Made by a program: the position numbers and the translations under genes. Positions 1,692 through 49,942 of a stretch of DNA of 64,000 nt are shown here, one piece after another; positions within the stretch are counted from its first letter, which is position 1, and each line of letters starts with the position of its first letter. This DNA is from Curvularia clavata. Taxonomy: Eukaryota. The stretch spans positions 372,001 through 436,000 of the forward strand of contig CP089277.1 in assembly GCA_023920165.1 (NCBI GenBank), written 5' to 3'. The notes under the pieces are model-generated. The model had not been told where the DNA came from and made no database searches. It was given only the letters and a program-made list of their open reading frames with translations.

Positions 1692-3438
1692 ATGAAGCCC
1701 TTCGTTTTAATTGCCGCATTGGCGGCAGGTGTGCAAGCCAATAACAGGTTTGAGCCGCAAAACTTCGACGCCAATGAGGCCTTGATGAACAAGGGTGTTA
1801 ACGTTTCAAACCCTTCAACTGGAATCTCGAACAACTGCCACATAGCAGTAAGTAATTGGCATTAAGTTGCATGATTGGACGACGCTGATACTTCGCCAGT
1901 GCGACACACTCAGGAGACGATTTGGCAACAACAAACTCGTCCTGCCATCTGATGCTGCATATAAGAATTTCACCGATTCCTATTGGTCTGCTCAGCAGCG
2001 AAGCATCTCTCCAGGCTGTGTCTTCAAGCCTGAGACAGCTCAAGATGTGTCGGTTGCAGTCCTGACTTCGAGGTTGACGAACTGCCCATTTGCCGCCAAG
2101 AGCGGTGGACACTCGGCAGTTCCAGGAGGATCAAACATTCAAAATGGAATTACTATCAGCTTCGAGAAGATGAGCAAGACTACAGTGTCTGCTGATAGGA
2201 AAAGTGTCACGTTCGAGCCAGGCCAGACATGGCGCGATGTGTACTCGAAACTGGCAAAGGATAACATTATCATTATCGGTGGCAGGGTAAGATACGAAGT
2301 ACAATAATGAAGAAGGCTTGGTTAACCAGTGTTTAGGCTGCTAGTGTCGGCGTGGGAGGTCTGACCCTTGGTGGAGGTGAGTTACTTTCCACTGACATAA
2401 TAAAACCAACGCAAGCTTACATCCAATCCAGGTATCTCTTACTTCTCCAACACCTATGGTCTAGCCTGCGACAATGTCATCTCCTATGAAGTTGTCACAG
2501 CCTGTGGCCGTATCATCAACGTCAGCAAGACATCCTACCCGGATCTCTACTGGGCCCTTCGCGGCGGCGGTAACAACTTTGGCATCGTCACCAAGTTCCA
2601 GGTCAACGCCATCTCCAAGTCTCCCATGATGTGGGGTGGCATGCGCCTCTACTCCCAACAAGCCATTCCAGCTCTAATCCAGGGCTACTACAACCTGGGC
2701 TTCAACGCGTCGAAAGACGGAAAAGCACACCAAATCCTGTCATTTGCATATGGCGGCCCACAGATTGGCAGCGTTGCCAGCCTCGAGCTTGAATACGCCG
2801 ATCCAAACGGCGAGACTGCCCCCGTTCTCAAGGAACTCAACTCCATCGACCCCAGGACCGTCCTTCAGGGCGGATTTCAAAACAGCACCCTCGTCGATCT
2901 AACAGTGAGTCTGGGCCAGACGGCCGCCGTAGCCGGACTCCGCCAGTCCTTCATCACATGGACTGCGAAGCTGGATGTAGAGCTCGCCAACATCACACAA
3001 GGCATTTTCTTCGAGGAACTTCCTAGCGTCATCGACGCAGCCAATATCACGCCTGCGCTCGCACTCCAAGTCATCTCGGAGCCCATAATCCGTAAGACGG
3101 CGCTGAATGGTGGAAACCCGCTTGGTCTGTACCCAGAAGAAGGACCGCTCATGCTGGCGCTCGTTTCCATCCGCTGGTCTAATTCCACTGATGATGCACG
3201 CATCAACGCTTTTTCGCAGAGGGTGCTGGAGCGTTCCGTGCAGGCGGCCAAGGCGCTGGGTAAGAGCTCGGATTATATTTACATGAATTATGCAAATGGG
3301 GCGCAGGATGTTGTAGCTGGGTATGGCGCGCAGAACAAGGCGCGGTTGGAGCAGATTTCGAAGAAATATGACCCTGAGGGTGTGTTTGAGAGACTGCAGC
3401 CGGGCTACTTTAAGTTGAACAAGGCGCCTGATGCATAG
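1692..3438 (+). CDS. Secreted FAD-binding (berberine-bridge-enzyme-like) oxidoreductase, multi-exon
   Basis: ATG at 1692 with signal peptide MKPFVLIAALAAGVQA. Intron 1848-1899 and further introns near 2287-2336 and 2377-2431. Motifs: KSGGHS (covalent flavin His), GGRAASVGVGG after splicing, DLYWALRGGGNNFGIVTKF, and BBE-type C-terminal YMNYA..YG..N..RL..ISKKYDPEGVF. Confidence 0.9.
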
Positions 3439-3879
3439 AGGAAGTTTTAAGGAGAAGTAATTGGGGATTGAGGCTTGGGGTACTTTGAACGATAGATATA
3501 TCGTGATTCGAGATACATGATACATTCTAATGTTTTATTCTGCTGTCATACTTGCTTCATTCCATTGAGCTGCTCGTGAACTTGAAGCTTAGACTCGGAC
3601 TAGCTGAGACAGGGAGAAAGTTGAAGTGGGATTGGTTAATGCTACCTTGATTTTTACATGTACAGCCGAAAATCAAGAACGTCTCAAACTAAGTATTTGT
3701 TCTCTCCACATTCAACGCGAAAGAATTCGTAACTATCCAAGAGAACGAGGGAGGTCGTGAACCGCAGTCTGCAGAAACGTGTACCTGAACGTTATCCCTG
3801 ATCACTCAGTTAGTCCGCACCCCTACTACAATGCTAAAAGCGAACAAGGATATCGACATACCCCTTTCCCCTCTTCCGC

Positions 3880-4128
3880 TTACATGACCGCACATCCTGG
3901 ACCAATGCCACCAGGGGTACCAAGTGTTGTCTGCGTCGGGTACTTTAACTTTGTGGTGACGTCTTCACGACTTTCTGTCATGGCAGAAACCGCCGCCTTT
4001 GCCATTATCGCAGAATATATCAAGACTTGCTTGATCTGTGTGCTCAATTCGATTGCCATAGCGTTGAAATTGCGAGAAGGTGGTGTAGAAAAGTGCTGGA
4101 CCAGCAGCATTGTCGACATGTCGTGCAT
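3880..4128 (-). CDS. Putative a-factor-class lipopeptide pheromone precursor (CAAX-terminated short ORF); start codon uncertain (4128, 4005 or 3981)
   Basis: Ends ..KYPTQTTLGTPGGIGPGCAVM-TAA. In-frame ATGs at 4128, 4119, 4110, 4059, 4005 and 3981. TATATAAA at 4311-4304 followed by a C/A-rich leader. Confidence 0.5.
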   Translation of the reverse strand: MHDMSTMLLVQHFSTPPSRNFNAMAIELSTQIKQVLIYSAIMAKAAVSAMTESREDVTTKLKYPTQTTLGTPGGIGPGCAVM

Positions 4129-5336
4129 GTTTGATATTCGTTCGCACAGCGAGACTTGGTTGGTATTTAGGGTATGGGTGTGGTGGTAGTGTTGATGTAT
4201 TACTTTGCTTTGATGTTGACAGGACCAGCCGGTGGGATAAAAGTCTATGTTGAAAAAGTTGTGGTGGTATGAGGAGAGTCTTCGAGAAGGTTGCAGCATG
4301 GCCTTTATATATCTGGGGGACGACGACGTAGAATATTTTCACTCGCATACCATTGTTCTGGCTTAGCATTGTTCTGCTCATGGCTGGCGGTGCCGTGCTC
4401 GAGATGAGTGTGGGGTTGGCGGAGGTGCAAGGCGGGTTGCGTGCTTGCTATTGTTCCAAGCGTTGGGCAACCACGGCAATGCGCGGTATATGATGGCGAG
4501 TTCCCATGGCTAGGCATCAAGAAACACGCTTTCACATCAGGAATCGCAACGAGTACGATTGAGGAGGTCGGTAGTCGTCTGCATTCCTGGACGTCGTTTT
4601 CCAACGCAGTCACACATATCCCAACCCATGCCACATCAGCCGGCTCCGAATCCCCTCCAACTTAACTACACCTCTCAACTTTGATGTCGAGAATACAAGT
4701 AGATCAATTCACTAGTCCATCATATGGATCCGACTGCGTATACTCATTCGTATAATTATTCGTACAATTACCTTCTTCAAGTCTTCCGCTCAGAATATGT
4801 AGCCACAACCCACTGCACAACTTCTGTCATTCTAAACGCCAGACTAAGAAAATACCTGTGAACTCAGCCTAGCAGGCGGGGAAATAATTAGAAAAAGATT
4901 GTTTGTATTTTGCTTTGAAAATTATATAACTATTTACATACGTGATTGAACCACCTACACAAATAATACATAATCCGCTCTGCTGGCTAAGCCCCAGAGC
5001 GTCGGTATAAGCTACTCTACCTAATGAGCGCCAAACAGTCCTTGCCTCCATACATAGACTCACCACTACATGACCAATCAGTAAATCAGATCCCTTAACC
5101 TTTGCCATACACTGCATACATCAAAACAACAAGCTCAGCCATACATACAGATTTCCCTCATATTCAAGATTATAACTATTATGTAGCGAGTGTATATACT
5201 ATTCCTCCATCCACCATTCCATTCTATGTACAAAGTTTTCCCCATCCAAAAATTCTCTATTACCAAGCTTTTCCCTTTCCTCATAACATGTGTATATATT
5301 TACTCGCCTACTCCATTCAAATAATCCTCGTCAGAT

Positions 5337-6058
5337 TTAGTTACCAGCAGCAGCCTTACCCTTTCCCTTTGCGGCAGCCTTTCCCTTACCCTTGGCCTTT
5401 CCTTTTCCCTTTGCTTTGGTCGTAGCCGTGGCAGCATCACCCGCCTGGGCACCCAGGACATTCTTGGGATTTGTACCGGCCTTGTTGTTAATCACCTGGC
5501 CGCCGCTGATGCCGCCCTGGGGACTGACGTTGTTGCGTGCCTGGGCGGCCTTGTTCTGGTACTGAGTGACGGCAGCCGCATTGGGGGGGTTGATGACCAT
5601 GACCATGCCTTGTTGGCAGTGCTGGGCCTGGGAGCAGTAGATGTACATGGGCTGGGTGTCTGTGATGGGGACCATGAAGGTGGGCGTGTTGCCGGTTTGG
5701 CGGATGCGGTTGCGGCCGTTGGCGGCGTTGGCACCGGGGTTTCCCTTTGGGTTGCCGGGGATGGGCTGGAAGTCGGAGAAGATGGCGTTTCTTTGGGGTC
5801 GGCAGGGGGTGTTTGCGTCGGAGGAGGCGACGCTGTGGTTCTGGGGTCAAGTCAGATTTGATGCTGATGGGTTGAAGTGAGGGCAAGTCAATGTACCTGA
5901 GCAACAAAGTTAAAGGCGACCATGTCTCCAGGCTGAGCGGTGATGGTGTTTGGTGTAAACTGGAACTTGTTGTTGGCAGCTACGGTGACCGTCATGACGG
6001 CAGCGGATGCAGTCAAGCTCTGGGCAAGAGCTGCGCATAGGATTGTGGAGAAGAGCAT
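5337..6058 (-). CDS. Secreted cupredoxin-domain protein with Lys/Gly/Ala-rich tail
   Basis: Signal peptide MLFSTILCAALAQSLTASA and FTPNTITAQPGDMVAFNF. Intron 5841-5896 joins to NHSV. Type-1 Cu ligand motif YCSQAQHCQQGMVMVINP. Tail KAKGKGKAKGKGKAAAKGKGKAAAGN. Confidence 0.88.
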
Positions 6059-47166: not shown

Positions 47167-49942
47167 CGTCTACGGCAATGCCCCTGCATAGTGGGGCTAG
47201 AATCGGCGGAGATGCGGCTGACGATAGAGCGAGGCGAGCGAGGCCAAGAGCCATTACGTCTGGGGTGCAGCTGTTGGTAGCCCACGCTCGCTTAGCTTGC
47301 AGGGGTCGCCTGCACTGGCCGGAACGCTCTAGGTTGATCAAGGAGATAGAATTCTTGCTACCTAATTTGCAGTGATGGCAGCCATCAGGAGCGAATGCAA
47401 TCGTCAGTGATGGTAATTCGAAAGTAATGGCAGGACTGGAAGCAATGAGTATACAAGGATGAATGGACTGCATTATCACTGTCGTTGTGGTTAACTCAAA
47501 TTATATTTTCTTACCGTTAATTTACTTTATGAGATTATGACTTGTTAGTTGATAGCAATATAGATTAGTGATTGTCAACCCCGTTACTCTCGTTCACGCC
47601 ACTCCACAAAATCGCCAGACAACTCTCACGGCGCTTACACCCTTCCCTACTCACTCTAACCCCGTGTAACAGCCAGGCCTCTGGGGACAGATGGCTCTTT
47701 CGAGAGTGAAGTGAAGTGGAGCGGTGCAGATTCATATCCGCATCGCGTCGGCTGTCTGCCCTCTCTGTCATCCAGGTATAGCTGTGGAGATTACGGCTGA
47801 AACCGAATAGGATACAACCAACTCATCAATCACGTGGATATGGATATTAGTAAGAATAGATACTTCATTGCTCAGATTTCCGAGAACTTTAGGAGAGTTA
47901 TAAATTACGTATTACAATGTGTGCAGTGCCGAATCCACAACATCTCAGCATAAAGGTGCTGCACAATAGGGTTGTCCGCTGGGTGTAAAACAGCAATTAG
48001 TTCCTCCACGGCACTGCAGAAGCTGTTAGTAATGGGGCAGGGTAGTTTGTTCCTAGGATTCATACTGTAAGGCCACCACATGACTGAGCAGCTACATGTT
48101 GAGCGAACATAGTAGCTAGAGCGGCAACGATAAATGCCTTGATATTCGCCATCATTACTACTGGTATGGTTAAAAAAAGATGTTCAGATTACTAGGCGAG
48201 ATACATACTAACAAGGGCTAGGGAAGATCACAAAATATATACTCTGCGTTTTGGTAGGGATATACGATAGGGAATGTTGAAAAAGAAGCAACCAATGACT
48301 TGCTTGCAGCAATTTATACGCAAAAGGTTTCTCTACTGCTCGGCCCTACTATGTTACTAGGCTAAGGTGCGTCCCTACGTACGCGGCGGAAAACCCGGTC
48401 TATGGAGATCAACAGATCAGATTGCCAGAATCGCAAGCGCCGAGAGTCTCTCAAACTAATGAATACGAGGAAATACCGGTTTTCCCATCCAAGGACCCAC
48501 TTTAGTTATAGCGATTTACAATGTCCATCCCTATGTGCTAATACATATGGTGCGACAGGATGCTTTCTCTTCTACACTCTCGGCACTGTACAAGACACAC
48601 TGTGCGCTAACCAGTAGCATAAATACTACATATGATAGTGCTAGTAGAGTCTTTTAGAGATGTTATTGACGACTAAGTTAGATAGTTATTACTACCTGTG
48701 AGCAAGAATATTCAAAGTAGATGGGCGGCAAGGCATAAGTTAAGCTAGATAAGGTAGCTAGTCTTGATTTAATATTGTGAGCAGCAGATTTTAGAGCCAA
48801 TCACAGCTCTTGACATCTGTGAAATACAGTAATTGTATTCAAATCGAAGTCCGACCAAGCAGAAGCTGAATAGCGCTCCACTTTGAATACTTTTGCTGAT
48901 AAGTACGTTGCCGGTGAAGCCGAACTCCTAATCTTAAAGAATCGCGGGAGCCGGCAATACTCTAAAGGCAAGTGTACTTACGAAGCTACTGCTACGGTAT
49001 ACCTTAATTGTATTTAGTGCTGACGCAGCTAATGTCTATTACAGAAGGGATAGACGTCAGCAACGAAGTAACACCGACTAGAAAGAAAGCTCTAACTGAC
49101 TATAGGCTAAAGAAGCACCGACATAAAGACAACGCCAAGTTATTATTCTTTAGTAGAACGGTGGCATCAGTGCAACAATTCCCTGCACCAGACTCATTTA
49201 GTCAGACAGCGCTCTGAGATCCAGCCTGGAACCGGATACAATCCAGATGAGATCCGAGTGAGATCGGTACCTAAAAGTACAAACAACAAGTACCTCTTTT
49301 TGCTATTCAGTAGATTCTTGGTATCCTTTCATACTAGGCTTATGTGTGTCTACCGAATCCACGGTGTTTCTGCTATCCCACGCATTCCCATGTGCCTCTC
49401 AGTGACACTACCTGCCGATACCAATCCGACTCATCTTGCTCATGCCGTTACAATCAGTGTCTTTGATTAGAGAAAACAGCGACAGCAGCCGAAGTCGCGT
49501 TGCAACGGAGGGGCTGGGCATCTGGCCCTAGCTCGCAAGCCAACCGCGATGCATGAATAGACGTGTTACAAGTAGACAGCTGCTGGGCTGCGCAGTTCAG
49601 TAATACGAACAATGGTAATCTAAGTGACGAGACATTTGCTGACGTGCTGTTTCATTCGTATCTCCATACTAGTCAGTCGCGGACTGATCTTGCTTTCATG
49701 CATGGCACTGTTGTACAGCCATTTTGCTCTCTTCATCGCACACAGCTATTCTTCGCTACAACATACTATCATCTCTAGCTGCTCGTGAATCTCCTTCGTC
49801 TAATCCAACAACAGTGCGGGTATATAGTACAATAAAACCAAAACAATGCAATGCCGCAAACGCCGTGTGTGTGTCATGAGCCATATCTACAACGCTAGGA
49901 AACAAGACAAGAAAAGAATAAGGAAAAGAGATTGCCGTGCGA

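Follow-up and report, generated by a model that had tools for sequence, protein, structure and literature searches.

Introduction

Single-unit a-factor precursors have been described from Sordariomycetes (Neurospora mfa-1, Podospora mfp, Sordaria and Fusarium graminearum ppg2, and those of Colletotrichum). They are short, carry a pro-region rich in Thr, Pro and Gln, have a Gly shortly before the Cys, end in C-x-V-M and lack a signal peptide. The Colletotrichum members are 33–47 aa long and Gly-rich before the CAAX box, as given in the S2 File of PMC10569646. The open reading frame (ORF) analyzed here has the same short length, pro-region composition, Gly position and C-x-V-M end; with respect to a signal peptide it was judged by hydropathy only, which found a weak, non-conserved stretch. 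Its KYPTQTT resembles, by eye only, the KVPQTT of mfa-1. Unlike those precursors, it has no Asn near the Cys, no GY motif and an optional long in-frame leader, and it comes from a different fungal class; the F. graminearum precursor in the S2 File is also without Asn (PMC10569646). The gene has an intron in its 3’ UTR, whereas Podospora MFP is described as intron-less (PMC3125171).

Based on its sequence, its transcript and its promoter, this locus is probably an a-factor-class mating pheromone precursor gene, and one of at least two in the genome. Outside the Sordariomycetes, an a-factor-like pheromone has reportedly been described from Aspergillus fumigatus, judging by the title of Krappmann et al. 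2025 (doi 10.1016/j.cub.2025.03.080), which is cited in PMC13712828. According to a 2023 paper, no a-factor gene had been found outside the Sordariomycetes (PMC10569646), and Dothideomycetes are described as retaining the receptor for a-factor along with a Ste6-like exporter (one per genome; PMC6071951). No Dothideomycete a-factor gene was found in our literature search, in which subscription papers were mostly not covered, and the 2025 A. fumigatus work may bear on novelty.

Genomic setting

The locus was analyzed in a window, meaning the whole stretch of 64,000 nucleotides at G000:C4:372001-436000, within a genome of 32.36 Mb in 8 contigs. A neighboring protein clusters with Bipolaris proteins (92.6–93.6% identity to five named species), and the lineage, as read from protein sequence, is Bipolaris/Curvularia (Cochliobolus), Pleosporaceae, Dothideomycetes, the fungus being none of those five species. 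The MAT locus has an alpha-box gene, and none of the six HMG-box matches lies on that contig; the sequenced strain is MAT1-1 and the species probably heterothallic. STE3 and STE2 are present in one copy each, and ICMT (STE14), the prenyltransferase subunits, STE24, RCE1 and a STE6-like gene are all present. We take the last of these to be STE6-like from its atlas label and its N-terminus. STE2 (G000:C4:501495) lies on the same contig, about 125 kb from the window gene, which is probably incidental. The locus is flanked by a gene for an FAD-linked oxidase with a BBE domain (1692–3438, plus strand) and one for a secreted cupredoxin-like protein with a basic tail of KAKGKG repeats (5337–6058, minus strand; PF13473, E 0.009, below the Pfam cut-off). 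There was no sign of a functional link to either neighbor.

The micro-ORF and its homologue

A preliminary description of this DNA had proposed a minus-strand ORF ending in CAVM-stop. Translation of the window bears this out: 4128–3880 comprises 82 codons ending MTESREDVTTKLKYPTQTTLGTPGGIGPGCAVM-stop, with the CAAX box C-A-V-M and its stop codon at 3880–3894. A Met in the last position of a CAAX box is a predicted farnesylation signal. The TATA box TATATAAA proposed earlier is present at 4304–4311 (minus strand), and ATG 4128, with A at -3, is followed by five ATGs in the same frame, as had also been claimed. The frame remains open up to an ATG at 4299, 5 bases behind the TATA box, from which translation would give 139 aa; 4129–4299 (minus strand) is probably 5’ leader. 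Seven ATGs (4299, 4128, 4119, 4110, 4059, 4005 and 3981) precede the Cys codon downstream of the TATA box, and all are in the CAAX frame, so that any of them would yield the same C-terminus. Chance would place all seven in one frame with a probability of about 1e-3 if they are independent. No stop interrupts this frame over 152 codons, which for the 119 upstream codons has a P of about 0.005.

Taken by itself, a CAAX-stop preceded by a Met is weak evidence, as chance CAAX ORFs are not rare. Under a loose pattern the window holds 10 CAAX-stops, 6 of which are preceded by a Met, and 6 of 100 local shuffles produced Met..C-x-[VI]-M-stop. Genome-wide, a DNA pattern encoding C-x-[VIM]-M plus TRR gave 330 matches compared to 227 for a reversed control, and chance CAAX ORFs are put at 500–2000 per yeast genome (bioRxiv 2021.09.28.462209). 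The window ORF is raised above chance by its spliced transcript, a homologue with identical last 33 residues and a cluster of promoter motifs.

A single homologue, P0002, was found in protein collections, which were covered by three word searches and a full HMMER search. By protein size, the word searches gave one match at 45–144 aa, none at 22–72 aa and none above 146 aa. Neither the window peptide, in six variants with different starts, nor the C8 peptide described below, in two, had an exact match. None of the 33 C-terminal residues differ between P0002 and the window ORF, compared to 7 of the 38 preceding aligned residues (Fisher p 0.013), and the changes stop exactly at the last Met; the first dozen residues of P0002 align poorly. 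Pheromone precursors are expected to be conserved in this way, at the C-terminus (bioRxiv 2021.09.28.462209), and the identity may also reflect close kinship. The conserved core of 33 codons, MTES...GGIGPG-CAVM plus TAA (3880–3981, minus strand), has no nucleotide differences in the covering pieces of four sequencing runs. The in-frame N-terminal extension or leader (3982–4128, minus strand), with ATGs at 4128, 4119, 4110, 4059 and 4005, is poorly constrained.

Conservation of the CAAX box and frame in relatives, on which the earlier reading depended, was seen in one homologue only: P0002 retains the CAAX box and the last 33 residues but not the proposed start. The Mets of 4128, 4119 and 4110 are missing from it, whereas those of 4059, 4005 and 3981 are retained. 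ATG 4128 was rejected as a conserved start, and by this alignment the conserved precursor is 33–59 aa long, not 82 aa.

At the nucleotide level, pieces within 3861–4284 from four runs (298, 263, 281 and 220 bases) show no differences, compared to 1.2–2.1% in the flanks, in a count that omits three flank pieces more than 5% different and an 85-base piece of run X7 (4200–4284) with 3 differences. The runs were found through shared words, which biases the count towards identity. No second copy of the window gene was found in the genome by protein search. A metagenome pattern scan yielded no relatives among 427 matches, and a degenerate G-x-GPGC-x-[VIM]-M pattern yielded no homologous sequence among the 120 metagenome matches listed, which were mostly one bacterial antisense frame. 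An unrelated CAAX protein, rich in Lys and Glu and ending KKGDGPGCVIM-stop, is encoded on two metagenome contigs (L031, L081).

Transcript and 3’-UTR intron

Four of nine runs were compared over 3300–5700, using contigs only. No run is on record as RNA; the RNA status of X1 and X2, two studies under one organism label, was guessed by a program and is backed by a GT-AG joint. Contigs of these runs give a minimum transcript extent of 3666–4158 (X1, 3666–4158; X2, 3751–4123) and reach upstream only to 4158. In both RNA-like runs compared, the contigs skip the same 64 bases, an intron in the 3’ UTR at 3798–3861 (GTATGT...CTAAC...CAG) that begins 18 nt past the stop codon, whereas an X7 contig retains them. 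The GT-AG orientation places the transcript on the minus strand. The locus is thus transcribed and spliced, in keeping with the gene first proposed. A further possible intron, 4203–4155, is unsupported, as the contig begins at 4158 and matches the genome. In Neurospora, the 3’ non-coding region of mfa-1 is reported to have its own role in female development (PMC6562746), and the UTR may matter here as well, with an intron so close to the stop codon.

Promoter sites common to pathway genes

Three GAACAAT sites lie upstream on the minus strand: site 1 (GGAACAATAGCA) at 4450–4456, site 2 (AGAACAATGCTA) at 4368–4374 and site 3 (AGAACAATGGTA) at 4352–4358, 46 bases upstream of the TATA box. GAACAAT is common on its own (0.125 per kb in the genome), and RGAACAATAG is without genome-wide enrichment (125 vs 126); it is the clustering that counts. 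This triple is the only one in the 64 kb. Three or more sites occurred in 0.15% of 2000 shuffles, and about 0.3–0.4 tight triples are expected by chance genome-wide. The core AACAAT/ATTGTT is reported to be bound by the MAT1-2-1 HMG box in F. graminearum (PMC4559316). In V. dahliae, AACAAT in the Ppg2 and Pre1 promoters is reported to be bound by both MAT proteins, including MAT1-1-1 (PMC11077750). MAT1-2-1 targets listed for Podospora include MFP, PRE2, RAM1, STE6 and, under the name STE24, a gene described as the methyltransferase (PMC3125171).

Six pathway genes were located by family, and GAACAAT was counted in the 800 bp upstream of chosen start codons. Two sites were found for STE2, two for RAM1 and one for STE14, with none for RCE1, STE24 or the STE6-like gene, which has one site near -860. 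Three of six pathway genes therefore carry the motif, compared to none of 19 control promoters (STE3, CDC43, BET2, MAT1-1-1, 11 ABC genes and 4 window genes); six further ABC loci, two of which have 3 and 2 sites 1.2–2.0 kb before the first domain, were omitted because their starts were not fixed. RAM2 also has two sites in 800 bp, but it was the motif that led to RAM2, as it did to the C8 locus, and the sites of both are not independent. For the shorter AACAAT, the 19 controls have 9 sites, the candidate has 3 (P 0.012), and STE2, RAM1, STE14 and the STE6-like gene together have 7 (P 0.003). With a matrix built from the STE2, RAM1, RAM2 and STE14 sites, the candidate’s three sites rank 1–3 in the 64 kb, site 3 being the top match, although the matrix core was first noticed at the candidate gene itself. 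The 9-mer GAACAATAG of site 1 occurs twice upstream of STE2.

A common upstream motif near RGAACAATRG in STE2 (L203), RAM1 (L221), RAM2 (L210) and STE14 (L202) is a candidate signature of a Pleosporaceae MAT1-2-1 regulon. GGAACAATAGCA also lies directly upstream of a protein kinase gene (L176, G000:C1:4755725), presumably IME2-like. ATCAAAG, noted as a core in the Podospora MFM and MFP promoters (PMC3730723), occurs at 4679–4685 (minus strand) with a second copy at 4214–4208, and may be there by chance. Elsewhere in the window, a 16-codon ORF (49553–49603, plus strand) ends in CAVQ-stop with GAACAAT just past the stop, which looks like chance.

A second candidate gene on contig C8

One of 48 genome matches to RGAACAATRGYA lies upstream of an unannotated 59-codon ORF at G000:C8:1253469-1253648 (L219:2290-2469, plus strand). 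This ORF begins MKMAGIKPVPR, continues with four RGSSPGPGC-[TV]VS units and ends in CVVS-stop. Its promoter contains four AACAAT sites and, at a distance of 123 bases from the ORF, a TATAAA; its neighbors encode a HAD-like hydrolase and a HET-domain protein. The gene is single copy and, by sequence, a candidate repeat-type a-factor gene whose GPGC end is common to the window gene. Among 34 short ORFs of the Met..CaaX type in the scanned DNA, three GAACAAT sites within 1 kb were found only at the window gene and the C8 gene, both of which end GPGC-x-V-x. Likewise, of 31 genome matches to GPGC-xxx-TRR, an aliphatic CaaX followed by a stop was seen only in these two. More precursor copies may exist in the genome, because the CaaX scan spanned about 0.75 Mb (overlaps included) of the 32 Mb. 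No third precursor emerged from tandem AACAATG (25 matches), tandem GAACAAT (13 vs 9 in the control) or nine further motif pairs, and 11 other genome matches to G-C-x-V-M-TRR, five of which were inspected, included no better candidate.

The C8 gene seems no less canonical than the window gene, which is probably not the sole a-factor gene. It is conceivable that the C8 gene alone makes the Ste3 ligand and that the window gene encodes a MAT1-2-regulated small farnesylated protein that is membrane-bound or has another mating role. This would fit a genome with one STE3 gene, the clearer pheromone architecture of the C8 gene, predicted mature peptides with only GPGC in common and 33 conserved residues where a mature peptide of 8–11 would need fewer. 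Such a division of roles is nevertheless unlikely. A GPGC-x-V-x end in the only two triple-motif CAAX genes found would be improbable by chance, single-unit T/P/Q-rich precursors ending G-x-C-x-V-M are of the Neurospora/Podospora type, and divergent a-factor copies occur within one Huntiella genome.

Coding capacity of the transcript

An a-factor-class precursor also accounts for the locus better than an RNA that is non-coding, or not translated, and has its CAAX-stop by chance, a reading to which we give little credence. Chance CAAX ORFs are common, the nucleotide identity in four runs spans the leader too and names no frame, and an intron just past the stop is equally possible in a non-coding RNA. 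Against this, all seven ATGs are in a CAAX frame open for 152 codons, and the amino-acid changes in P0002 end at the last Met. Pfam, Rfam and atlas searches gave no match for the window gene, no stable RNA fold was found at the locus (z +3), and the other frames of the spliced RNA yield only a 32-codon ORF.

A longer small protein (59–82 aa) with no part in mating, perhaps secreted via residues 35–50 and with incidental promoter motifs, would fit the retention of Mets 4059 and 4005 and of the open frame in P0002, the 9-residue hydropathy peak of 2.27 and low-level RNA contigs from runs whose mating type is not on record, but it is very improbable, as residues 35–50 are only weakly hydrophobic (19-residue mean 1.28), and less so in P0002 (0.92), there is no family match and the motif pattern links the gene to the a-factor pathway.

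Proposed pathway

The a-factor reading is favored by the spliced transcript, the C-terminal conservation over 33 residues, the MAT1-2-1-type AACAAT sites common to STE2, RAM1, RAM2 and STE14, and the C8 repeat gene. The steps proposed here are modeled on yeast (bioRxiv 2021.09.28.462209) and on filamentous models (PMC6562746). In MAT1-2 cells, the HMG-box protein MAT1-2-1 would bind the GAACAAT sites and turn the gene on together with STE2, RAM1, RAM2 and STE14. A cytosolic precursor of 33–82 aa, depending on the in-frame ATG used, would be farnesylated at its Cys by Ram1/Ram2, lose AVM and be carboxyl-methylated by Ste14, and N-terminal trimming would leave a short peptide ending GPGC(farnesyl)-OMe. 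Our best guess for the mature peptide is GTPGGIGPGC, which would begin like the C8 unit (G-S/T). Export would be by a Ste6-like ABC transporter and sensing by the Ste3 receptor of MAT1-1 partners, with a role in male fertility. The window gene would be nearly silent in the sequenced strain, which is MAT1-1. The C8 repeat gene would give a related lipopeptide, GSSPGPGC, for the same single Ste3 receptor.

If true, a-factor genes would here be described for the first time in Dothideomycetes, and the window gene would fill a stated gap for a whole fungal class. Two genes and short peptides would make half of the mating dialogue testable in a large plant-associated group, including the classical Cochliobolus crossing systems. 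Looking for CAAX micro-ORFs with neighboring AACAAT clusters would reveal such genes in cases that escape homology searches, and promoter motif plus CAAX would offer a way to annotate a-factor genes across genomes.

Comparison with known a-factor systems

Saccharomycotina a-factors have an Asn cleavage site 5–20 residues before the Cys. This site is absent in the window peptide, whose nearest Asn is 57 residues upstream of the Cys, with none within 20, and whose closest basic residue is 17 before it; the peptide fails the yeast Axl1 filter. Yeast a-factor copies are reported to be usually above 70–85% alike in the mature region (bioRxiv 2021.09.28.462209), a degree of likeness not seen between the window and C8 peptides, which agree in GPGC only. 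The putative a-factor family of Leotiomycetes (Botrytis BCIN_13g03330) is described as Cys-rich and not mating-type-specific (PMC10569646). Its members are short and end in C-x-V-M, as does the window ORF, but membership was rejected because they end CxxCDG...CCCIPIPC and the window peptide has a single Cys. No clear copy of that family was found in the genome; of 4 matches with one mismatch, none ends in a CAAX-stop.

The repeat-type (h-type) a-factors of Huntiella, Verticillium (Ppg2), Fusarium and Trichoderma (hpp1) resemble the C8 gene in their 12-residue units, basic start and CaaX-like tetrapeptide end. Huntiella units start with RG, as do those of C8 (PMC10569646, S2 File), and AACAAT occurs in the C8 and window promoters as it does in that of Verticillium Ppg2 (PMC11077750). 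By the presence of tandem units, the C8 gene with its four units belongs with this type and the single-unit window gene does not. Several divergent a-factor copies in one genome are reported for Huntiella (PMC10182648). The evidence leaves it evenly balanced whether Pleosporaceae draw their a-class pheromone from two unlinked genes, a single-unit Neurospora-type gene in the window and a four-repeat Huntiella/Verticillium-type gene on C8, giving two farnesylated peptides with a common GPGC end for one Ste3. The h-type is described in a review as having replaced the ordinary a-factor gene (PMC6562746), whereas both architectures appear to be present in one genome here. Their coexistence, if true, would argue against a simple replacement of the ordinary type by the repeat type.
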